From Malacoraja senta (lineage: Eukaryota), in the NCBI GenBank assembly GCA_038087875.1, contig CM075991.1, forward strand, positions 248,001 to 312,000: 64,000 bases of DNA, given 5' to 3'. Position numbers and translations under genes: made by a program. Of this stretch, positions 19,881 through 62,855 are shown piece after piece (position 1 is the first letter of the stretch; the number at the start of each line of letters is the position of its first letter). The notes beneath the pieces are model-generated. The model saw only the letters and a list, made by a program, of their open reading frames with translations. It was not told the DNA's origin and made no database searches.

Positions 19881-20080
19881 NNNNNNNNNNNNNNNNNNNN
19901 NNNNNNNNNNNNNNNNNNNNNNNNNNNNNNNNNNNNNNNNNNNNNNNNNNNNNNNNNNNNNNNNNNNNNNNNNNNNNNNNNNNNNNNNNNNNNNNNNNNN
20001 NNNNNNNNNNNNNNNNNNNNNNNNNNNNNNNNNNNNNNNNNNNNNNNNNNNNNNNNNNNNNNNNNNNNNNNNNNNNNNNN
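19881..20080. other. Assembly gap (200 N)
   Basis: Run of N. Confidence 1.
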
Positions 20081-37554: not shown

Positions 37555-40500
37555 CTTCAGACGGGGCCTGCCGGGGGCCGGTGGGGGGAAGCGCTGTCGT
37601 GGCCTACCGCTGCCATGCCCTATCATTGACTACTGCCGTGGCCTGCTGCTGCCACTGCCTACCGCTGTCTAGCCTTGCCACTGCCGCTGCCGTGGCCTAT
37701 CACTGTCGCTGCCTACCACTACCATGACCTATCGCTGTCTTGGCCTACCGCTGCCATGGCCGTGGTCTGTCGTTGCGGTACCCGGACGTGGCGCCGACGG
37801 ACGAAAAGCCGAAGCAAAGAAGTCGAAGCCAAAGAACCGAATAGAAACGAGGCAAAAACGCCAATAAATCGAAAGAGTACGAAGACGAAATGCCTACTAA
37901 CCAAAAGGATGGGACACCTAAATGCAAACTAACCGAAAGGGCGGGACGCCTAAAAGCCAACGAACCGAAAAGCTGCGTCGCCTAAAAGCAAACTTACTGA
38001 ATGGCCGCTCTGTCGAAACACCACTTACCTGAAAGGCGGCGTCGCCTACACGCCAACGGACCGACTGCTGCTCAACAGAAAAGTCCAATAACGGACATGA
38101 CGTTGCCAGGCGGCGGGACTTGTCAGCGATTGGTCTAGACCCCCGCGTCCATCACATCACTGTGAAGGGATGAACATTGTCCCACACCTCTCCACCGACC
38201 AGCAACCCGCGGAGGGTGGCCGTGGGAGAGTGGGGGCTGTCCCAAGGGATGTGCGGCCACTTTCAACTTGGTGCTTGGGTTCAGATTGCCCAGTCACCTA
38301 TGGCTTGTGTGGGAAAAGGGCCCCCATGCTCCCATCTTCCCCTTCTCTCACCCCTCTTCTCTCTCTCTCCCCCCATCTCTCTCTCCCTTCTCTCCCCTTC
38401 TCTCTCTCCTCTCTCTCAGCCCGTCTCTCTCTCCTCCTCTCTCTCCACTCTTCTCTCTCTCCTCTCTCTCAGCTCTTCTCTCTCCCACCACTCTCTCTCC
38501 TCCTTGCTCTCCCCTCCTCTCTCTCCTCTCTCTCCATTCTCTCTCTCCCCCTCTCTCCATTCTCTCTCTCCACCTCTCTCACTCCCTTCTCTCCCTCCTC
38601 TCTCTTCCCCTCCTCTCTCTCCCTTCTCTCTCCCTCCTCTCTCTCTCCTCTCTCTCCTCCTCTCACCCTCCTCTCTTTTCCCCCCTCACTTTCCATTCTC
38701 TCTCCCTCCCCCCCTCTCCGTCCCTTCTCTCTCCCTCCCTTCTCTCTCTCCCCCTTCTCTCTCTCCCCCTTCTCTTCTCCTCTCTCTTCCCCTCCTTTCT
38801 GTTGAGAAAACTGGCAGCGGTCCGTGTGAAAATACAGCACCTACCAACAATGAAGGCAATGTGAAACCAGCGGCCGCAAGCCCTTCGCACGGGACGGGGT
38901 TTTAACTCGGCATTAAAAATCAAAACAGAGCTACATTAATTTAAAACAAAAATGTTACATGTATAAATCGTTCTTACATTGGGGAACATGGTTAATTAAC
39001 TGTTGCCATTATATCCCTGTCATAACGCCCTTTGCTTTAGCCGGTGATTACATCCATTCCATCCCTCCCTCGCAAAGATGTGGGATTTCAATTTGAGCAC
39101 ACTTGTTTGAATAGATGCAAGCGGCATGTAAAGCGCCTCTTCTGTGGGCTGTGGTCCGGGCATCAAAAATGTGTCTAGAAATCCATTTTCGTGATCCACG
39201 TCTCAGAACTAAATTACATTTTCCACAGATTTAGATGAAATATAATTGAGAAGGAAGTTATAACTCGTCAGTGCCAAAAGTTGCACATTAATTAACTAAT
39301 TAGAAAATGAGATCGAGAAAGTAACCGCCATCTAGTGGCCAATGCCCATATTACCCCATGGGCAGCCTATTTCCGTGTTGCAGTCCATTTAAACCATATA
39401 TTATTATACCCATATATATATGACGTAAATATGACTGTAATCATATATAATTAAGTATATGATGAATATAATTGTGTGCTTTTTTAATGACACTGTCGCA
39501 GAGGTCCTGCTCCTGAACCAGCCTAAGGGTGAGGGCAGTTCTTGTGGGTTCCTCCCCTTACTGAACACCACTGATTGCCAGTGTGCAGAGTGGGGGTCAC
39601 GGCCATAGTGGGACTGAGCCAGTTCAAGGCTGGGGGACAGACCTGTAAGGCAGCTTCCTCAATGGGAAATTTAATGAGAAGGAAAAGGAAAAAAAAAACA
39701 TGATGCCGAGAAAATAGGTAGTGATTGTGGGAGATTTCAATTTTGCACACATAGACTGGGAAACACATTCTGTAAAAGGGCTGGATGGTTTGGAATTTGT
39801 AAAATGTGTGCAGGATAGTGTTTTGCAGCAATACATAGAGGTACCTACTAGAGAAGGGGCAGTGCTGGACCTCCTGTTAGGAAATGAGACAGGGCAGGTG
39901 GCGGAGGTAAGCGTTGGGGAGCACTTCGGGTCCAGTGATCACAATACCATTAGTTTCAATATAATTATGGAGAGGGTCAGAACTGGACCTAGGGTTGAGA
40001 TTTTTGATTGGAGATAGGCTAACTTTGAGGAGATGTGAAAGGATTTAAAAGGAGTGAATTGGGACATGTTGTTTTATGGGAAGGATGTAGAAGAGAAATG
40101 GAGGACATTTAAAGGTGAAATTTTAAGAGTACAGAATCTTTATGTCCCTGTTCGGTTGAAAGGAAATAGTAAAAATTGGTAAGAGCCATGGTTTTCAAGG
40201 GAAATTGGACACGGTTCGGAAAAAGAGAGAGATCTACAATAATTATAGGCAGCATGGAGTAAATGAGGTGCTTGAGGAGTATAAAGAATGTAAAAAGAAT
40301 ATTAAGAAAGAAATTAGAAAAGCTAAAAGAAGATATGAGGTTGCTTTGGGAAGTAAGGTGAAAGTAAATCCAAAGAGTTTCTACAGCTATATTAATAGCA
40401 AAAGGATAACAAGGAATAAAATTGGTCCATTAGAGAGTCAGAGTGGACAGCTATCTGCAGAGCCAAAAGAGATGGGGGAGATATTGAACAATGTCTTTTC

Positions 40501-43500
40501 TTCGGTATTCACCAAGGACTAGGATATGGAATTATGTGAGGTAAGGGAAACAAGCAGAGTAGCAATGGAAACTATGAGATTCAAAGAAGAGGAGGTGCGG
40601 ACACTTTTGAAAAATATGAAAATGGATAAATCTCCAGGTCCTGACAGGATATTGCCGAGGTCATTGAGGGAAGTTAGTGTTGAAATACCAGGGGCTATGA
40701 CAGAAATATTTCAAATGTCATTAGAAACGGGAATAGTGCCGGAGGATTGGTGTACTGCACATGTTGTTCCGTTGTTTAAAAAGGGTTCTAAGAGTAAATC
40801 TAGCAATTATAGACCTGTTAGTTTGACGTCAGTTGTGGGCAAATTAATGGAAAGAATACTTAGAGATAATATATATAAGCATCTGGATAAGCAGGGTCTG
40901 ATTAGGAACAGTCAACATGGATTTGTGCCTGGAAGGTCATGTTTGACTAATCTTCTAGAATTTTTTCGAAGAGGTTACTAGGGAAATTGATGAGGGTAAA
41001 GCAATGGATGTTGTCTATATGGACTTCAGTAAGGCCTTTGACAAGGTTCCTCATGGAAGGTTGGTTAAGAAGATTAAATTGTTGGGTATTAATGGTGGAG
41101 TAGCAAGATGGATTTAACAGTGGCTGAATGGGAGATGCCAGAGAGTAATGGTGGATGGCTGTTTGTCAGGTTGGAGGCCGGTGACTAGTGGGGTGCCTCA
41201 GGGGTCTGTGTTGGGTCCACTGTTGTTTGTCCTTCAGACGGGGCCTGCCGGGGGCCGGTGGGGGGAAGCGCTGTCGTGGCCTACCGCTGCCATGCCCTAT
41301 CATTGACTACTGCCGTGGCCTGCTGCTGCCACTGCCTACCGCTGTCTAGCCTTGCCACTGCCGCTGCCGTGGCCTATCACTGTCGCTGCCTACCACTACC
41401 ATGACCTATCGCTGTCTTGGCCTACCGCTGCCATGGCCGTGGTCTGTCGTTGCGGTACCCGGACGTGGCGCCGACGGACGAAAAGCCGAAGCAAAGAAGT
41501 CGAAGCCAAAGAACCGAATAGAAACGAGGCAAAAACGCCAATAAATCGAAAGAGTACGAAGACGAAATGCCTACTAACCAAAAGGATGGGACACCTAAAT
41601 GCAAACTAACCGAAAGGGCGGGACGCCTAAAAGCCAACGAACCGAAAAGCTGCGTCGCCTAAAAGCAAACTTACTGAATGGCCGCTCTGTCGAAACACCA
41701 CTTACCTGAAAGGCGGCGTCGCCTACACGCCAACGGACCGACTGCTGCTCAACAGAAAAGTCCAATAACGGACATGACGTTGCCAGGCGGCGGGACTTGT
41801 CAGCGATTGGTCTAGACCCCCGCGTCCATCACATCACTGTGAAGGGATGAACATTGTCCCACACCTCTCCACCGACCAGCAACCCGCGGAGGGTGGCCGT
41901 GGGAGAGTGGGGGCTGTCCCAAGGGATGTGCGGCCACTTTCAACTTGGTGCTTGGGTTCAGATTGCCCAGTCACCTATGGCTTGTGTGGGAAAAGGGCCC
42001 CCATGCTCCCATCTTCCCCTTCTCTCACCCCTCTTCTCTCTCTCTCCCCCCATCTCTCTCTCCCTTCTCTCCCCTTCTCTCTCTCCTCTCTCTCAGCCCG
42101 TCTCTCTCTCCTCCTCTCTCTCCACTCTTCTCTCTCCTCTCTCTCAGCTCTTCTCTCTCCCACCACTCTCTCTCCTCCTTGCTCTCCCCTCCTCTCTCTC
42201 CTCTCTCTCCATTCTCTCTCTCCCCCTCTCTCCATTCTCTCTCTCCACCTCTCTCCCTCCCTTCTCTCCCTCCTCTCTCTTCCCCTCCTCTCTCTCCCTT
42301 CTCTCTCCCTCCTCTCTCTCTCCTCTCTCTCCTCCTCTCACCCTCCTCTCTTTTCCCCCCTCACTTTCCATTCTCTCTCCCTCCCCCCCTCTCCGTCCCT
42401 TCTCTCTCCCTCCCTTCTCTCTCTCCCCCTTCTCTTCTCCTCTCTCTTCCCCTCCTTTCTGTTGAGAAAACTGGCAGCGGTCCGTGTGAAAATACAGCAC
42501 CTACCAACAATGAAGGCAATGTGAAACCAGCGGCCGCAAGCCCTTCGCACGGGACGGGGTTTTAACTCGGCATTAAAAATCAAAACAGAGCTACATTAAT
42601 TTAAAACAAAAATGTTACATGTATAAATCGTTCTTACATTGGGGAACATGGTTAATTAACTGTTGCCATTATATCCCTGTCATAACGCCCTTTGCTTTAG
42701 CCGGTGATTACATCCATTCCATCCCTCCCTCGCAAAGATGTGGGATTTCAATTTGAGCACACTTGTTTGAATAGATGCAAGCGGCATGTAAAGCGCCTCT
42801 TCTGTGGGCTGTGGTCCGGGCATCAAAAATGTGTCTAGAAATCCATTTTCGTGATCCACGTCTCAGAACTAAATTACATTTTCCACAGATTTAGATGAAA
42901 TATAATTGAGAAGGAAGTTATAACTCGTCAGTGCCAAAAGTTGCACATTAATTAACTAATTAGAAAATGAGATCGAGAAAGTAACCGCCATCTAGTGGCC
43001 AATGCCCATATTACCCCATGGGCAGCCTATTTCCGTGTTGCAGTCCATTTAAACCATATATTATTATACCCATATATATATGACGTAAATATGACTGTAA
43101 TCATATATAATTAAGTATATGATGAATATAATTGTGTGCTTTTTTAATGACACTGTCGCAGAGGTCCTGCTCCTGAACCAGCCTAAGGGTGAGGGCAGTT
43201 CTTGTGGGTTCCTCCCTTTACTGAACACCACTGATTGCCAGTGTGCAGAGTGGGGGTCACGGCCATAGTGGGACTGAGCCAGTTCAAGGCTGGGGGACAG
43301 ACCTGTAAGGCAGCTTCCTCAATGGGAAATTTAATGAGAAGGAAAAGGAAAAAAAAAACATGATGCCGAGAAAATAGGTAGTGATTGTGGGAGATTTCAA
43401 TTTTGCACACATAGACTGGGAAACACATTCTGTAAAAGGGCTGGATGGTTTGGAATTTGTAAAATGTGTGCAGGATAGTGTTTTGCAGCAATACATAGAG

Positions 43501-44891
43501 GTACCTACTAGAGAAGGGGCAGTGCTGGACCTCCTGTTAGGAAATGAGACAGGGCAGGTGGCGGAGGTAAGCGTTGGGGAGCACTTCGGGTCCAGTGATC
43601 ACAATACCATTAGTTTCAATATAATTATGGAGAGGGTCAGAACTGGACCTAGGGTTGAGATTTTTGATTGGAGATAGGCTAACTTTGAGGAGATGTGAAA
43701 GGATTTAAAAGGAGTGAATTGGGACATGTTGTTTTATGGGAAGGATGTAGAAGAGAAATGGAGGACATTTAAAGGTGAAATTTTAAGAGTACAGAATCTT
43801 TATGTCCCTGTTCGGTTGAAAGGAAATAGTAAAAATTGGTAAGAGCCATGGTTTTCAAGGGAAATTGGACACGGTTCGGAAAAAGAGAGAGATCTACAAT
43901 AATTATAGGCAGCATGGAGTAAATGAGGTGCTTGAGGAGTATAAAGAATGTAAAAAGAATATTAAGAAAGAAATTAGAAAAGCTAAAAGAAGATATGAGG
44001 TTGCTTTGGGAAGTAAGGTGAAAGTAAATCCAAAGAGTTTCTACAGCTATATTAATAGCAAAAGGATAAAAAGGAATAAAATTGGTCCATTAGAGAGTCA
44101 GAGTGGACAGCTATCTGCAGAGCCAAAAGAGATGGGGGAGATATTGAACAATGTCTTTTCTTCGGTATTCACCAAGGACTAGGATATGGAATTATGTGAG
44201 GTAAGGGAAACAAGCAGAGTAGCAATGGAAACTATGAGATTCAAAGAAGAGGCGGTGCGGACACTTTTGAAAAATATGAAAATGGATAAATCTCCAGGTC
44301 CTGACAGGATATTGCCGAGGTCATTGAGGGAAGTTAGTGTTGAAATACCAGGGGCTATGACAGAAATATTTCAAATGTCATTAGAAACAGGAATAGTGCC
44401 GGAGGATTGGTGTACTGCACATGTTGTTCCGTTGTTTAAAAAGGGTTCTAAGAGTAAATCTAGCAATTATAGACCTGTTAGTTTGACGTCAGTTGTGGGC
44501 AAATTAATGGAAAGAATACTTAGAGATAATATATATAAGCATCTGGATAAGCAGGGTCTGATTAGGAACAGTCAACATGGATTTGTGCCTGGAAGGTCAT
44601 GTTTGACTAATCTTCTAGAATTTTTTCGAAGAGGTTACTAGGGAAATTGATGAGGGTAAAGCAATGGATGTTGTCTATATGGACTTCAGTAAGGCCTTTG
44701 ACAAGGTTCCTCATGGAAGGTTGGTTAAGAAGATTAAATTGTTGGGTATTAATGGTGGAGTAGCAAGATGGATTTAACAGTGGCTGAATGGGAGATGCCA
44801 GAGAGTAATGGTGGATGGCTGTTTGTCAGGTTGGAGGCCGGTGACTAGTGGGGTGCCTCAGGGGTCTGTGTTGGGTCCACTGTTGTTTGTC
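37555..44891 (+). repeat. Near-identical tandem duplication (37555-41231 and 41232-44891)
   Basis: ORF track duplicated with offset 3660-3677; junction ...tgttgtttgtc|cttcagacgggg; only a few substitutions and CT-tract indels. Confidence 0.95.
39710..41231 (+). mobile_element. CR1 (family B) EN-RT, truncated by the duplication junction
   Basis: VGDFNF, SSDHN, KSPGPD; stops and frameshifts. Confidence 0.92.
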
Positions 44892-45785
44892 ATGTACATC
44901 AATGATCTGGATGATGGTGTGGAAAATTGGATTAGTAAGTATGCAGATGATACTAAGATAGGTGGTGTGGTGGATAATGAAGTAGATTTTCAAAGTCTAC
45001 AGAGAGATTTAGGCCATTTTGAAGAGTGGGCTGAAAGATGGCAGATGGAGTTTAATGCTGATAAATGTTAGGTACTACATCTCGGCAGGACAAATGCCAT
45101 GGTACGTACATGGTAAATGGTAGCGAATTGAGGAATGCAGTTGAACAGAGGGATCTAGGAATAACTGCATAGTTCCCTGAAGGTGGAATCTCATGTAGAT
45201 AGGGTGGTAAAGAAAGCTTTTGGTGTGCTGGCCTTTATAAATCAAAGCATTGAATATAGAAGTTGGGATGTAATGTTAAAATTGTACAAGGCATTGGTGA
45301 GGCCAATTCTGGAGTATGGAGTACAATTTTGGTCGCCTAATTATAGGAAGGATGTCAACAAAATAGAGAGAGTACAGAGGAGATTTACTAGAATGTTGCC
45401 TGGGTTTCAGCAACTAAGTTACAGAGAAAGGTTGAACAAGTTATGTCTTTATTCTTTGGAGCGCAGAAGGTTAAGAGGGGACTTGATAGAGGTCTTTAAA
45501 ATCATGAGCGGGTTAGACAGAGTTGACGTGGATAAGCTTTTTCCATTGAGAGTAGGGAAGATTCAAACAAGGGGACATGACTTGAGAATTAAGGGACAGA
45601 AGTTTAGGGGTAACATTAGGGGGAACATCTTTACTCAGAGAGTGGTAGCTGTGTAGAATGAGCTTCCAGTGGAAGTGGTGGAGGCAGGTTCGATGTTATC
45701 CTTTAAAAATAGATTGGATGGGTATATGGACGGGAAAGGGATGGAGGGTTATGGTCTGAGTGCAGGTAGATGGGACTAGGGGGAA
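43370..45785 (+). mobile_element. CR1 (family B) EN-RT, degenerate
   Basis: ORFs 43381-45656 including YADD. Confidence 0.93.
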
Positions 45786-46579
45786 GTCCTGCTCACCCCT
45801 CTCAGACAAATTTGTGTACCTGATGTTTTTCAGTAATATGCTGGCTTATTAGCCAATATAAAGCACTGTAAATAAGAGCAGAAGTGGAAATCTCAAAAGT
45901 AATAACCAGTCCTTTTCTGCCCGTTCCTTTCTACTATTTTTATTTCAATGTTCGAAAGGAAGCCTTGGTTATAACCCTGTATCTCTCTAGGCCAGGGGTC
46001 TCACAATTCTAAAGTAAATCATTTCAAGTTGTCACCATACCAAGTGCTGAATGAAAAAAACCTAATCAGACTAGTGAGTTCTTCTCAAGGGTATGCTGTC
46101 CAGTTACTCGCAGCTCTGTCCATCACATGACCATTTTCACGGTGTTTCTTTGTTCATGTTTCGCTCTGACTGTTTCATTTCTCCCAAAGCCTATCGGGAT
46201 ATTTGACATCCAGTCCCAGACTATATTTTTATATTCCTAAAAATTCCCCTGGTGATGAAATGGTCCGTGTCAGATGAAATCGGATGTCATTGAATGAGCT
46301 TGCAATCTCAACTGTTTATTCTTTGTTTTCTCTTAACTTTAAGTTTATTTTCTTCCTATTTCTTACCGTTTGAATTGAGTTCAGATCGAGAGCTGAATTC
46401 GGCGCTGGCCACGTGGCACCCAGGTAGATGTGTTGGATGAGATTGGAGATGCCTTTATCTCAGAACAAAATCTGTTAATTTGAAAATTGTGGATTTGGGG
46501 AGATAATCGGTAGGCAGCGCGACTCTGCAGTCCGTCTGTCTTTTTTTTTTTTTTTGTCCCGTTGAGTGTATAGTTTGTA

Positions 46580-48346: not shown

Positions 48347-48643
48347 TAAGGAACAGGGGAGAGATAAGACTTTGCCTTCCATCACAGTGAGGAGGTGTTT
48401 GGAGATTCACTGTGATGGATATTTCTGTTAATTGTGTCTTGTGTTTTTTCTTGTTTGTATTACTTCAGAAACGTTCAAATGACATAATAAAATATCTTGT
48501 ATCTTGTATATATTATATATTTGTAATTGCTTTTTTTTGTCTTAATATGATCTATTTTTTAAAGGGTCTGCCTTGTAAGTAGTTAAAGAGTGATCTCACA
48601 TCCCTCACCACCCATAGAATTCTGAATTAATGGAGGGAATGAA

Positions 48644-50530
48644 TCTATATTACTAAAACTAAGATCTTGACCACTTTCTGACTTTCTGTTTCGTGATTTC
48701 TGAAAGAACGCCGCCACTTACGGCCGTAATGTTTGGCCACCTCGCTCAGTCCCCCTCCGCTGAGCTGGACCAGAGGATTTTTTCCCATCGATGAAACATA
48801 AAAGAGTTATTAATGTTTTAAAAATGTTGACATTCTCTCTGCTGCCACTGCTGGTGGGAGGGGGGAGGGACTAAAAATCCGGAAGTGTTGTGCCTCAATC
48901 AGTCTCTGCAAGATGGGGGGGAAGTGAGAGGGTCACGTCTCTCAGTCTGAGCTGTGAATAACACGGAACACATGTCTACTAAACTGTGAGTGTGGTTTTA
49001 CTGACTTTGAGTGCCCTTAATGTGGTTTGAAAATGAAAATATGGTTGGTTTGAAGAAAAACACTGCAAATGGTTGGTGGGGGGGGGAGTTGGTTGAAGTA
49101 AAAGGCACTGCAAATGGTTGTTTGGGGGGTTTGGGTTGAAGTAAAAGGCACTGCAAATGGTTGTTTGGGGGTTTTGGGTTGAAGTAAAAGGCACTGCAAA
49201 TGGTTGTTTGGGGGTTTTGGGTTGAAGTAAAAGGCACTGCAAATGGTTGTTTGGGGGTTTTGCGTTGAAGTAAAAGGCACTGCAAATAGTTGTTGGTCTA
49301 AACTTGACAACTTCCTGTCAATTGATTTTAGATAAAACGCTACCACTTACGGCTGTGATTTTTGGCCATCTTACACAGCCCCCCTCCGCTCATCAGGTGC
49401 AGAGGATTCTTCCCATCAATGAAAAATAAGTGTTATTAGTGTTTAAAAAATGTTGAGAATCTCTCTCCTGTCAATCCTGTGTGGGAGGGGGAGGGATTAT
49501 AAAACCCGGAAGTGTGGGTGTGGCCCAGTCTCTGCATGATGGGGGAGGGAGAGGTTACGACTGTCTGAGCTGTGAATCAACTGAACGCACTGAATGTCAA
49601 CTGAACTGTGAGCGTGGTGTTTTGTGTGGTTTTATGGTGGTTTCACCCTGCTTGAAATGGTATGAATGCATTTGAATGTGGTGGCCTTGCACCCTGCATG
49701 AAATGGTATGAAACTGCATTTGAATGTGGTGGCGTTTCACCCTGCATGAAATGGTATGAAACTGCATTTGAATTTGGTGCCCTTGCACCCTGCTTGAAAT
49801 GGTATGAAACTGCACTTGAATTTGGTGGCCTTGTGCCCTGCTTGATGCGGTATGAAACTGCACTTGAATTTGGTGACCTTGCACCCTGCTTGAAGTGGTA
49901 TGAAACTGCACTTGAAATCGGTGGCCATGCACCCTGCTTGAAGTGGTATGAAACTGCACTTGAATTCGGTGGCCTTGCACCCTACTTGAAGTGGTAGGAA
50001 ACTGCACTTGAATTCGTTGGCCTTGCACCCTGCTTGAAGTGGTAGGAAACTGAACCTGAATTTGGTGGCCTTGCACCCTGCTTGAAGTGGTATGAAACTG
50101 CACTTGAATTTGGTGGCCTTGCACCCTGCTCGAAGTGGTAAGAAACTGCACTTGAATTTGGTGGCCTTGCACCCTGCTTGAAATGGTAGGAAAATGGATT
50201 TGAATTTGGTGGCCTTGCACCCTGCTTGAAATGGAATTTCAAGGAATAGCCGTGAGTCAACTGCCAGCCCACCAGCCGTGAGTGAGCTGCCAGCACATCA
50301 GGCTTGAAGGACTGAGCTGCCACCCCAAGAATCCATTTGGCCCACAATGTCCATACTAGCCCTCTGGAAACCAGTCCCTTCAGCCCACAACACCCATACC
50401 AGTGCTCCAGAAAGCCACCCCCCTCCCCCCCACTGGCCACCAATTTTGGAATTGGTGGAGAGGTGAAATATTGTGTCGGGGGACCAGCCCTCCCGTGTGA
50501 ACATGGGACCCAACGGGTCCCATAGTCTAG
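48644..50530 (+). mobile_element. Complete non-autonomous Helitron with internal 43-bp (49050-49290) and 48-bp (49640-50230) minisatellites
   Basis: A|TC start at 48644; perfect hairpin GGGACCC-AAC-GGGTCCC at 50505-50521; CTAG|T end at 50527-50530; no TSD. Confidence 0.85.
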
Positions 50531-51271
50531 TAGGACACTAAAGAGTGTGGAAGTTAGTTATGACCTACAGGCCCTCAGCGATTAATTAATTACATACGCA
50601 CAGTAATTAACCCGAACCGTGTCAGTCTTGCATTCGCAGGTATTGGAAACCCAGAAGCCACTGCCAGTTGAACACAGACACAGTCCATATTACTGGGAGA
50701 CTACGTACTGATATGGTACAGGGATCGGACGAAATTGGGACTGTGTTGGAGGGGACTGTACCAGGTGCTACTACGACACCAACTGCCGTGAAGATTGAAG
50801 ATCACCTCCGTTGGAGACATCTGATATGATTGAATGGACGTGAACCAAAAAAGGACAATGGAGCTATTGACCCTCCTTTTATCCTGAGGTTGGCCAGATG
50901 GGCTGGACTTGGGGAACAACTCCTGCATCAAGCCATCCTGAGTAAGGCTGACAACTGTCCTATACGTTTATAACACTGACCAAGGTGGATCCATTACCAC
51001 AGGTTCTTGACGTAACCAGAGAAAGGTGGCAGCTGATCCTAGAGCTACAGACAGAACTGAAACAGATGAAAAATATGCTCACCAATGCGCAGTCTGAAAA
51101 TGACCATCTCGCTTCCATCACACTGCAGCTGAAGGAGAGTAATCAGGTTGTGGAGTTGAAAAGCTTTGATTTTGAAGTGCAACTCACTTACAGAACTGGA
51201 TTGAGGTAAATCCCAGCCGGGATCAAAGTGAGGGGCTGAGTAAGGATGGATCAGACAGACAGTTCGCATTG

Positions 51272-51470
51272 ATGGAGAAGGAAGAAGAATGCTGCTTTCA
51301 CACGCTGATGGACAACTTCAGAGAAAGAACGCCTTTACAGATCAGGAGGAAGTGCAAAGCCTTTGGTCACAACTTCGGAAAGACGAACCACATTTGATCA
51401 AAGAAATTGAAGCATATCAAGCTCTATTATGTGACCAAGGGTCCAGAGAGAGAGAAGCTGAACATTTTTA
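51272..51470 (+). pseudogene. Intronless CRACR2A/CRACR2B/Rab44-family fragment
   Basis: EKEEECCFHTLMDNF/..NAFTDQEEVQSLWSQLRKDEPHLIKEIEAY aligns, with one frameshift, to recalled CRACR2A [47 protein letters not shown]. Confidence 0.6.
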
Positions 51471-51496
51471 AATAGCTGGACCTCTTGAGAGACATT

Positions 51497-52352
51497 ATGC
51501 ATTACTCTGACCAGGAAGACAATGACTCAGACCAGGTGATAATCAGTGTGATGACAATTAGGACATCGATGAGGATGGCAATGATGGCATTCCTGATGAA
51601 AAGGACAATTGCCGTCTTGTTGGGGTGGCAGATTGCAACGTGGTCCGCCCTGTTTCGACGAATGATATCAACACGGAGTGCACAATCAAATAAGATCAAA
51701 TAGAACAAGTTGTCCTACAACTTTAGGCTGTGCATGCCATGCGCAAGAAGAAGCCGTCTTATTCTCAACACTGACCAGATAGATGCCGATGGTGACGGCA
51801 GAGCACAGACCAGCAAGGATGACTTTGACAACATCCCAGATATCTATGACATGTGCCCCGAGAACAGCGCCATCAGCGAGACTCACCTGAGGAAGGTCCA
51901 ACGGGGACGATGCAGATCGATCCTAACTGGGTATTGTGCAACCAGGGCAGGGAGTTGCTGCAGACCGACAACTCTGACCCAGGCCTTGCTGTCAGATTCG
52001 AGGAGTTCAACACCATCAACTTCAGTGGCACATTCTACGTCAACACAGACCGCAATCTACGGTGGCTTTGTCTTTGGCTTACAGTCCAACAGCTGCTTCT
52101 ACGTGGTGATGTGGAAGTAGGTCCCTGGGAGGAGAAGCCATCCAAAGCCCATGGATACGCTGAAGGGCTCCACCAAGGGACGGGAGGGGGAAGCAGCTGT
52201 GAAATGCTCTCCAGCACACAGGCAACACCCTCGGATTGGTGCGAACTTTATGGCACGACCCCAAGAATATTGGCTGAAAGGATTACACCACGTAAAGGTG
52301 GCACCTGATCCATCAACCCTAAACATGCTTCATCAGGGTGGTGGTCAATGAA
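51497..52352 (+). pseudogene. Intronless thrombospondin-1/2-like fragment (type 3 repeats plus C-terminal domain)
   Basis: [110 protein letters not shown]; stops and small deletions; no introns. Confidence 0.9.
51619..51752 (+). mobile_element. 134-bp non-LTR-type insertion with (AAG)n tail inside the thrombospondin fragment
   Basis: 8-bp TSD GCCGTCTT at 51611-51618 and 51753-51760; removal restores [19 protein letters not shown]. Confidence 0.8.
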
Positions 52353-52931
52353 GAGAGTGAGAACTGGTGGCCAAACCTTTGGTTTGATGGACTTTGAGGT
52401 ACGGTGATACATTATGGCTTTATCATTCTGCTGATCATTGCTCTGATTTTTATTATTAAATGCTTGCGACCATTGTGTGCCTACTGAGGCCTGTGAATGT
52501 TATCATGTTACAATAAAAAGGAGGGAATGAAAAAGTTAATATAGTCAAATCTAATAGTATTCACAAAATACACAAAATGGAGTCATTCTTCTTACTAATT
52601 AAGATGGAAACTAAGAACAAATGGTCTGTGAAGGACAATTGTGCCTCGTCTAAAGTGACTCCATGCCAAGTCTGTATAATATTGCTGACTTTGCAGATAA
52701 GTAATGCAGTACCCAAAATGGAGTAAAAGGTTGGCGTTTTGATATAGAAATTAAAATGGAAACTTGCAGTATAACATGTGCTTATCCAAGGCCATGAAGA
52801 AGGACTATGAGCCAATGACACTGAAAAGATAACCGATAACTTGTTATTGGAGGAGCTTGGTTTAGATTACTTGAATTCTTAAAGGCTTGCCATATTCAGA
52901 CTTGGTAGGAGTGTTTTACTGATGAGAAAAA

Positions 52932-53715
52932 CTAGACTAAGTGGGACACGTTGGGTCCCATGTTCACACGGGAGGGTTGGTCCCCCAAAGCAATATTCCA
53001 CCTCTCCACCAATTTGCTTTCTGGAGTGCTAGTATGGGTGCTGAGGGCCGAAAGGACTGGTTTCCAGAGGGCTAGTATGGACATTGTGGGCCGAATGGAT
53101 TCTTGGGCTGGCAGCTCAGTCACTCAGGCCTGGTGGGCAGGCCCCTCAGTCACTCAGGCCTGGTGGGCTGGCAGCTCAGTCACTCGGACCTGGTGGGCTG
53201 GCAGCTCAGTCACAGGGCTGGTGGGCTGGCAGCTCAGTTACTCAGGGCTGGTGGACTGGCAGATCAGTCACTCAGGGCTGCTGGGCTGGCAGTTCACTCA
53301 CGGCTATTCCTTGAAATTCCATTTCAAGCAGAGTACAGGCCACCAAATTCAATTTCATAGCGTTTCAAGCAGAGTGCTGGCCACCAAATTCAGTTTCATA
53401 GCGTTTCAAGCAGAGTGCAGGCCACCATATTCAGTTTCATAGCGTTTCAAGCAGTGCAGGCCACGAAATTCAATTTCATAGCGTTGCAAGCAGAGTGCAG
53501 GCCACCAAATTCAGTTTCATAGCGTTTCAAGCAGTGCGCAGGCCACCAAATTCAGTTTCATAGCGTTTCAAGCAGAGTGCAGGCCACCAAATTCAGTTTC
53601 ATAGCGTTTCAAGCAGAGTGAAGGCCACCAAATTCAATTTCATAACATTTCAAGCAGAGTGCAAGCCTCCAAATTCAATTTCATAGCATTTCAAGCAGTG
53701 TGCAGGCCAACCAAT
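52932..53715 (-). mobile_element. Helitron 3' portion (same family as 48644-50530) with minisatellite of about 41 bp
   Basis: CTAG at 52932-52935; hairpin gggacacgttgggtccc; reverse-complement similarity to 50200-50530. Confidence 0.8.
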
Positions 53716-53754
53716 TGCCAAACAACTCATTGCATCTTCATCGTGGCTGCACGA

Positions 53755-61349: not shown

Positions 61350-62855
61350 GCTTTCCCAATGCGCTGCTATTACAAATTATGCTGTTGAAATATTATTTCC
61401 GGCCCTCCAGGTGGGTTCCCGTTGGTCATCGATCCGCGGCGGGCGAGCCGGGCCTTCCTGGCGAGTCCCTGGTCTCCGGCAGGAGAGCTGCACCTTCCAG
61501 GCGGATCCTCGCTCTCGGGGCCGCGGCTCCCCAGGGTGCTCCCGCCGCGCGCGAGAAAGTCTCTGAATGCCGGTTCTCCATTTAGAATTTATGTAGTTTA
61601 AATATATCTATGCTGGACATGTTTATGTTTCTGAATGTTTTTTTAAGTCTAAATACCAATTGCTATGACAAGATACGAAGAGGTCAGCTTGATGGTATAT
61701 TGTAAAAGTTATTAACGTTTGAAATTCTTAAAAACCGCGCATGCGCAGATTGGTCTCCTCTCCTGTCAGTCAGGAAGGGGCGTCGCCGGGACCGCGGTGA
61801 AGGAGTGGCGGCAGCCTGGTGGGGAGGGTAGTGCCGCGGGCTGAGCCCAGGAACTGTGCCTGGGCCCAGGCTGGAGCCAAGAACGAGCCCGGGGACTGAG
61901 CCTGGGCTGGAGCCGAGCCTGGGGCTGGAGCTGAAGTGAGGGCCGAGCCTGGGGCTTGGGATGGGGCCGTGACCGGAGCCGAGAAAGAAACCACGGCCTG
62001 GGATGGAACTAAGGATGAGCCTGGGTCCGGGGTCAAGGACAAGCCCTCCTTCCCTCCCTCCCTCCCACTCTCTCTCCTACTCTTCCTCTCCCTCCCTCTC
62101 TCTCCCTCCCTCCCTCTCAACCCCTTCCTCTATCCATCCGCTCTCTTTCCCTCCCCCTCTCTCTATTCCCTCTCGGTCCCTATTCATTGTAAAACTGATA
62201 CACCCCTCACTCTCCCTCCCTCTCCCTCCCTCTCCCTCCCCTCCCTCTTTCCATCCATCTCTCTCGCTGCCTCTCACTCCCTCTGCCTCCCTCCCTCACT
62301 CTCTCCCTCCCTCTCCCCATCTCTCCCTCTTCCTCCCACCTTCTATCTCCCTTTCCATCCCTCCCTCTCTCCCTCCCTCTCTCTCCCTCCCTGTTCCTTT
62401 TTCCCCTCCCCCTCTCATTCCTTCTCCCTCCCTCTCTTCCTTCCTCCCTCTCTCTTTCTCCCTCACTCTCTTCCTCCCTCTCTCTTCCTCCCCCTCTCAC
62501 TTCCTCTCTCTCTCTGCCACCCTTTCTCTCTCGTTCCCTCTCTTGCCCCCCTCTCTCCCTCCTTCCATCTCTCCCTCCCTTCTTCCTCTCTCCCTGTCTC
62601 CCAGGTGAAAGAAGAGGGAGTGTCAGGTGCTGGGGGATGAGGGCGAATGGAGGAGGATAGGAGTAGGAAGAGAGATGGCGAGGTAATGGAAATATTAAAT
62701 GCAAAGTTATTAACTTTAACGTAACTTCTGCCGTTCGTGCAGGACCGTCAGCTGATCATGCGCATTTGGGGGCTATGGCTTAGTGGTGGAATATTGCGTT
62801 GGGGGGCGAGCCCTCCCGTGTGACAAAGGGACCCAACAGGTCCCACTTAGTCTAG
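61350..62855 (+). mobile_element. Helitron-family element; 3' end clear, 5' boundary approximate; CT-rich interior
   Basis: Hairpin gggacccaacaggtccc, then acttagtCTAG at 62852-62855 followed by T. Confidence 0.6.

Follow-up and report, generated by a model that had tools for sequence, protein, structure and literature searches.

Nested, intron-free host mRNA pieces probably occupy the place of the env ectodomain in a non-autonomous, apparently class I endogenous retrovirus of the skate Malacoraja senta

Introduction

Acutely transforming retroviruses with host genes fused to env, such as those carrying v-sis and v-mpl, are defective and helper-dependent, and express a selected in-frame fusion. 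The element described here, identified in a 64,000-nucleotide stretch of the Malacoraja senta genome (assembly GCA_038087875.1, contig CM075991.1, positions 248,001–312,000 of the forward strand; hereafter the window), resembles them in having a defective genome with host sequence in env and in presumably needing a helper, but differs in that its env start is out of frame with the cargo, which is broken in all lineages.

Among endogenous retroviruses (ERVs), CrocERV31 carries nectin3 in place of env and CrocERV29 carries KIT-ligand, in six and nine copies, respectively (Chong et al. 2014, PMC4299795). Like CrocERV31, the skate element represents a lineage that bears host mRNA in the place of env and spread without env; however, CrocERV31 and CrocERV29 are presented in the available text of that report as having open frames under purifying selection, whereas the skate element has no open frame, varies neutrally, has four donors and keeps the env signal peptide and anchor around its cargo. 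LTR-mediated retrocopies, among them the mouse 'Super' retrocopy with its four genes, share other features with it in the available text of Tan et al. (2016, PMC5131818), i.e., intron-free mRNA pieces flanked by LTR-element sequence with two LTRs, microhomology at switch points (here at the ZNF276 joints), absence of poly(A), and several parental genes per element, with more rounds of copying. The mouse four-gene retrocopy is nevertheless described as a single locus (PMC5131818), as opposed to four nested captures, one of them permuted, in at least 54 distinct copies in the skate. Finally, the pseudogenes derived from the mouse circular RNA circRFWD2 (Dong et al. 2016, PMC4897178; cited in PMC5408686) show, as far as the available text of that work describes them, a non-colinear exon order, tens of copies, LTR association and no poly(A), all of which recur here for ZNF276. 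Their back-splice joint lies at exon boundaries (PMC4897178), whereas that of ZNF276 connects the middle of the 3' UTR to the middle of exon 2 and lacks a splice donor, and ZNF276 has entry and exit at one site with the whole circle present.

Compared with these systems, the skate element is unusual in its four serial nested captures within a lineage that was still amplifying, and in a full-circle capture joined by microhomology and not by back-splicing. We found no description of this family in the literature, nor any described case of such capture in cartilaginous fish; similar cases may exist in the subscription literature or in supplementary material such as the tables of PMC5131818. The family thus offers a multi-copy fossil record of retroviral host-mRNA capture without selection for the product, in which the order of events can be read from the sequence.

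A multicopy LTR element with host sequences in the place of env

The window contains a copy of a non-autonomous LTR element that is represented by at least 54 distinct copies, this one included, and measures ~6.5 kb between LTRs of ~550 bp. Copies were collected by a DNA search of the skate's own genome (2,335 candidates, of which 40 were scored) and by a Pfam TSP_C search that gave 158 matches (150 of 251 candidates scored), nearly all of which end near model position 158 of 198. The ERV context that the initial annotation had assigned to the cargo is borne out by LTRs and by pol and env remnants on both sides (Table 1). LTR pairs, found in 8 of the 12 copies examined, are 89.5–97.9% identical, and copies at dispersed sites each possess a separate LTR pair within unrelated flanking sequence. 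The word TGGCGTAGTC, a putative primer binding site that may be of the tRNA-Ser type, lies past the LTR in all four copies examined.

Table 1. Features of the window copy and of the elements that interrupt it
Feature	Position	Strand	Evidence or remarks
Upstream part of the same ERV copy (leader / degraded pol remnant)	45915..46505	+	71–83% DNA match to copies L168 and L040
ERV remnant, continued	48517..48643	+	83–87% match to L043, L040 and L168
Helitron-like insertion splitting the ERV (TC...hairpin-CTAG, between A and T; 48-bp minisatellite)	48644..50530	+	Ends read from sequence; repeat D2
Integrase C-terminal remnant, 3' end of pol	50531..50857	+	tblastn and tblastx to ERV integrase; alignment with cargo-free ERV
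env start codon and signal-peptide stretch, broken in the window copy	50858..50932	+	Aligns with env N-terminus of cargo-free L178 and L179
First THBS2 piece, ~residues 808–826, type 3 repeat	50933..50984	+	Match to skate THBS2 DDILNEADNCPYVYNTDQ
BicD-family mRNA fragment, two host exons joined, internal deletion	51012..51164	+	Pfam BicD, E 2e-9; 89–96% DNA identity to host exons
CRACR2A (EFCAB4B)-like mRNA fragment, limits approximate	51165..51496	+	Four protein matches, E<=0.001
Main THBS2 cargo, residues 843–1131, intron-free, with frameshifts, stops and deletions	51497..52352	+	Pfam TSP_C in three frames; frameshift-aware alignment
Inserted 132-bp genomic repeat	51622..51752	.	Window copy only; elsewhere in host introns
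Membrane-proximal region of env with transmembrane anchor and short tail; contains one stop	52353..52487	+	68% identity to cargo-free env; DNA alignment; hydropathy
Polypurine tract	52516..52527	+	Sequence; matching place in cargo-free relatives
3' LTR, interrupted by the right Helitron-like element	52528..52931	+	77–79% to LTR region of L132 and L133; 68–73% to main family LTR
Second Helitron-like element, in reverse orientation, with 41- and 30-bp minisatellites and a hairpin-CTAG 3' end	52932..53745	-	Outer limit approximate

Integrase remnants are retained in the element, and a Pfam search of two full copies gave no match for gag, reverse transcriptase (RT) or env. Cargo-free relatives, 70–79% identical to the element, have RT, RNase H, integrase and an env that matches Pfam TLV_coat over the cut-off, as well as env transmembrane motifs of gamma type (immunosuppressive LQNRMALD and the CX6CC motif CAIIEQECC). 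On these sequence comparisons the element appears to be a class I (gamma/epsilon-like) ERV, an assignment through a relative, L179, whose RT has its best PDB matches in MLV-type p80 RT/RNase H chains (E 3e-34), above foamy and HIV RT, this being a ranking of matches, the element itself having no RT. No helper virus of closely similar sequence was found; at only 70–79% identity, the cargo-free relatives are kin of the element, as opposed to its helper.

At either end of the cargo, alignments show it standing in place of env, with the signal peptide immediately upstream and the membrane-proximal region immediately downstream; in most copies, the env start and signal-peptide stretch reads MGLLTLLFILRLAQMG. 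The parent env family was reached through a search with the LTR and tail, as the TLV_coat search yielded other env families; one of these (L082–L110) has long open frames and DNA unrelated to the element. At C2:19.814–19.820 Mb, a degraded cargo-free relative (L032 and L132) lies directly downstream of a cargo-bearing copy in L031.

In the phylogeny of the copies, the window copy branches early, with the C385 group (97/83; midpoint root), and its LTR is nearer to two cargo-free relatives than to the family LTR (Table 1), so that the window shows either an ancestral or a recombinant state. On contigs C385, C864, C2711, C1195 and C4083, close relatives form clusters with common insertions and short branches, which represent either a younger sublineage or segmental duplications; some copies, e.g., L167 and L168, which have insertions in common at the same places, may be segmental duplications. 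Contigs from four sequencing runs, which come from four organisms and four studies, match the stretch and three of them show the tandem duplication of the family (see below) as a joint; one of the runs, X1, may be the source of the assembly itself. Among the contig matches listed from these four runs, no filled version of the shared 5-nt gap was found.

Thrombospondin-2 is the donor of the main cargo

The best protein matches of the thrombospondin cargo are chondrichthyan thrombospondin-2 (THBS2) sequences, which settles the choice between THBS1 and THBS2 that the initial annotation had left to a later comparison. THBS1 was rejected as donor, the host THBS1 exons being only 70–78% identical at the DNA level and THBS2 proteins matching far better. 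The captured part corresponds to skate THBS2 residues ~808–826 and 843–1131; position 51497, previously taken as the start of the cargo, is indeed that of the main piece, but a first THBS2 piece lies further upstream (Table 1). As had been proposed, the cargo is intron-free when compared with the exon positions of the host THBS1 paralog, whose intron sites it spans without interruption. In the host, THBS2 lies at C2:108.09–108.12 Mb (L175–L177) with a ~22 kb intron after residue 238; residues 23–261 were located, and repeated searches of the assembly together with 30 kb of DNA did not find its 3' exons.

The fragment ends at about position 158 of the 198 of Pfam TSP_C, so that the capture stopped 43 residues short of the C-terminus of the domain, and the lectin-like beta-sandwich thus truncated would likely not fold. 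Amino-acid changes from host THBS2 that are common to the copies affect 12 of 156 columns and give no sign of constraint before amplification. With respect to the two VVM peptides that had been related to CD47 binding, the counterpart CFYVVMWK of the first is present in the window, in another frame than the one running into the anchor, but the second is absent already from skate THBS2, where the site reads FIRVVVHE. According to the available text of PMC4029904, the first motif, on which the link to CD47 rests, is buried in the folded domain.

The THBS2–env joint and the coding state of the family

The reading frame on which the initial annotation was built is present as written, leading from NALQHTG to FIRVVVNE and on into ESENWWPNLWFDGL, a stop, the stretch GTVIHYG to CAY, and a final stop. 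It opens, however, past a stop at 52200–52202, it is interrupted by three stops within its thrombospondin part and by one within its tail, and the in-frame THBS2 stretch of the window copy comprises only ~50 codons (52203–52352), the remaining THBS2 cargo lying in the other two frames. In total, frameshift-aware alignment calls seven frameshifts and seven stops in this copy, some of them within the 132-bp insert. DNA likeness to env starts at ~52358 in the alignment with cargo-free relatives, which locates the junction, earlier placed at 52352/52353, within 52352–52360. As the initial annotation had proposed, the tail is a membrane anchor; it is that of env, and is read in the env frame. In a single comparison with the env C-terminus of a cargo-free ERV, 30 of 44 residues are identical (68%, E 4e-19), and the best 19-residue Kyte–Doolittle mean is 2.81. 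The polypurine tract and the LTR follow in the same places as in the relatives.

Across the family, nearly all copies have the first repeat unit at the 3' joint in the env frame, but a 46–47 bp tandem duplication just past the joint leaves the anchor frameshifted in most of the family. An out-of-frame consensus, which the initial annotation had named as evidence against its reading, is largely what the copies show: of 50 distinct copies, 38 have an anchor whose frame differs from that of THBS2, and nine of the 12 with an in-frame anchor have a single unit. Most of the single-unit copies are dispersed through the main clade, and hence would likely have arisen by collapse of the duplication. In none of the 12 in-frame copies does the open stretch of THBS2 ahead of the anchor exceed 10 codons. 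At the 5' end, the env start is in frame with THBS2 in a single copy of 28 distinct ones, which has a private deletion.

Lesions were surveyed in the 43 well-aligned copies out of 54, the 11 poorly aligned ones being left out. Codons 871–903 (33 codons) are deleted in all 43, frameshifts occur near codon 972 and near codon 1025 in 42 each, and a stop at codon 1106, 25 codons ahead of the junction, is found in 40 (as TGA in 48 of all 54). The window copy has all four of these common lesions; its frameshift in the 1049–1060 bin is a private 10-bp deletion and not a common one. Open-frame copies, for which the initial annotation had suggested a search, do not occur, none of the 54 having a THBS2 part free of stops and frameshifts. 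A crude, uncorrected nonsynonymous/synonymous ratio of 0.49 among copies gave the appearance of purifying selection, which disappeared once mutation classes were matched (0.88, 0.91, 0.89 and 0.77 in 43 copies, all below 1 but none significantly; p 0.14–0.79), and 21 of 59 possible stop codons are observed among the copies. Variation among copies is neutral, with no purifying selection seen.

By these sequence criteria, the family that amplified did not encode the fusion, and a displayed protein is implausible for it, because of the common lesions, the joints out of frame, the neutral variation and the 43 missing residues. The observation of a thrombospondin–anchor frame was thus real, while the membrane-anchored thrombospondin module on virions or infected cells that the initial annotation derived from it is weakly founded, shared lesions, out-of-frame joints and neutral variation all speaking against it.

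Nested BicD, CRACR2A and ZNF276 fragments

The THBS2 cargo is split by BicD and CRACR2A fragments, and CRACR2A is split in turn by ZNF276. The BicD fragment joins two host exons located at C4:87.08–87.09 Mb; its ends offer no clear case of microhomology at the joints. Between the first THBS2 piece and BicD, ~27 bases (50985–51011) match neither and are possibly a fifth captured fragment. The CRACR2A identity comes from a 36-residue part: of 1.84 billion proteins, four match it at E<=0.001, under the names EFCAB4B or EF-hand/Ras. The longer piece read in one frame had no protein match, and it was the shorter open stretch that matched; the host DNA of CRACR2A was not located. Joints read directly show no poly(A) at the cargo ends, and all fragments are internal pieces in sense orientation to the virus, each of which either replaces flanking sequence or sits on microhomology.

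ZNF276 adds 1.4 kb in 26 of the 30 distinct copies that retain its site, which corresponds to 51323–51334 within the CRACR2A fragment of the window according to a site census. CRACR2A homologs are continuous across this position, which makes the insert a derived state; L167 and L168 (C385-type) are uninformative as to its ancestral absence, the site being deleted there. The cargo maps exon by exon, with introns gone, to host ZNF276 at C2:152.63–152.67 Mb, and is 91–100% identical to the host coding exons in most copies; the protein is 91–92% identical to that of Amblyraja and Leucoraja, and 64–78% to those of other rays and sharks. The ZNF276 3' UTR segment present in the element (host C2 ~152.673 Mb) is an old genomic repeat that also occurs in L111 and L112.

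The order of the insert is non-colinear, residues 517–631 and the 3' UTR lying ahead of residues ~105–517: it runs from codon 517 to the stop and ~410 bases of 3' UTR (with later deletions), then from mid exon 2 back to codon 517. At the inner joint, between mid 3' UTR and mid exon 2, there is a 7-nt microhomology in which no cut yields a GT/GC donor together with an AG acceptor, while entry and exit have a 7–8 nt word in common with CRACR2A, with a short slip duplication at the entry. A canonical back-spliced circular RNA is therefore not supported as the source, since the joint has no splice donor, unless a later deletion removed the original joint. RT would have quit the viral RNA, copied the mRNA full circle and come back at the same short word. 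For the template, we lean modestly towards a linear mRNA with one intramolecular jump between exon 2 and 3' UTR; a circular RNA formed in some way other than canonical back-splicing is a less probable, though serious, candidate. Non-colinear retrocopies would thus be possible without back-splicing, which matters for the calling of circRNA-derived pseudogenes. A first look at the genome gave 2,962 ZNF276 candidates; as the family seeds skate genomes with THBS2, ZNF276, BicD and CRACR2A decoys, it may confuse gene annotation and read mapping.

Origin and fate of the cargo

Taken together, the element is most probably a non-autonomous class I ERV in which nested intron-free pieces of THBS2, BicD, CRACR2A and ZNF276 mRNAs replaced the env ectodomain, likely by template switching, and likely travelled along as non-coding passengers. 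RT would have switched template on co-packaged RNA and picked up host mRNAs one by one, THBS2 first, BicD and CRACR2A next and ZNF276 last. The amounts of change from the host that are common to copies fit this order, with 12 of 156 THBS2 columns compared with 3 of 103 bases in BicD and 18 of 1186 bases in ZNF276. The element lacks any intact gag, pol or env gene, from which we infer mobilisation in trans by a coding relative. The in-frame joint between THBS2 and env may be due to chance or be a by-product of homologous switching. Speaking against mere passengers, the cargo lies exactly between signal peptide and anchor and its 3' joint is in the env frame, as in a selected display construct.

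That the cargo was instead retained for a reason acting on the RNA, either as a stuffer giving packageable length or structure or as host-like sequence that lowered silencing, is improbable. Four captures within one region of 1.5–3 kb in a lineage that went on amplifying, and the extra ZNF276 insert in most copies, would be expected from it; however, large cargo deletions are common among copies, and a hot spot in dispensable env sequence accounts for the clustering without selection.

We consider it very unlikely that the first capture briefly gave a type I membrane protein, made of env signal peptide, calcium-binding THBS2 repeats with the lectin-like domain, and env anchor, which was displayed on virions or cells to the benefit of the virus, and decayed before the sampled copies spread. 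Replacement of only the env ectodomain, the env frame at the 3' joint and the early-branching, single-unit, in-frame window copy agree with such a protein, and purifying selection on nectin3 replacing env in CrocERV31, as described in the available text of PMC4299795, gives it a precedent. Against this, the 5' joint is out of frame in 27 of 28 copies (the exception having a private deletion), four lesions are common to all lineages, 43 C-terminal residues are missing from a beta-sandwich that likely would not fold, 12 of 156 columns carry shared amino-acid changes, and the host protein has no second VVM, the first being reported as buried (PMC4029904, available text). There is likewise very little probability in the fuller scenario of a fish retrovirus that swapped its env ectodomain for an extracellular-matrix module, displayed it and founded a lineage that became a serial mRNA trap, once copying an mRNA circle. 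Had a display protein once existed, it would represent a new route of viral host mimicry.

Least probable of all are LINE-made processed pseudogenes or DNA-level insertions in a provirus copied later, for which CR1-like LINEs are plentiful in the window and segmental duplication may have spread some copies, but which are weakened because the internal pieces, all sense to the virus, have no poly(A) and sit on microhomologies or replace flanking sequence, and also do not sit well with the permuted ZNF276 order and with dispersed copies having their own LTR pairs and unrelated flanks.

Other elements of the window

The two elements that interrupt the ERV copy are named Helitron-like on the basis of the end features of Helitrons (5' TC, 3' hairpin with CTAG, A|T target site), which are present at both ends of the left element and at the 3' end of the right one. 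T follows CTAG in 12 of 12 Helitron-like matches listed. The ERV remnant at 48517–48643 ends on the A of the A|T site of the left element, which is the base before 50531 in intact copies. A Pack-TIR or foldback transposon was considered and rejected: the long inverted arms are two separate Helitron-like elements face to face, and the ERV goes on past the left one. More hairpin-CTAG 3' ends of the same family occur at window positions 62855 (+) and 36367 (-), the minisatellites differing within the family. CR1-like LINEs are abundant in the window, and a 200-base run of N occupies 19881–20080. At 38344–41250 and 42021–44910, a stretch of ~3.67 kb occurs as two tandem copies whose low-complexity parts (repeat families D1, D3 and D7) are nearly identical, representing either a local duplication or an assembly artefact.
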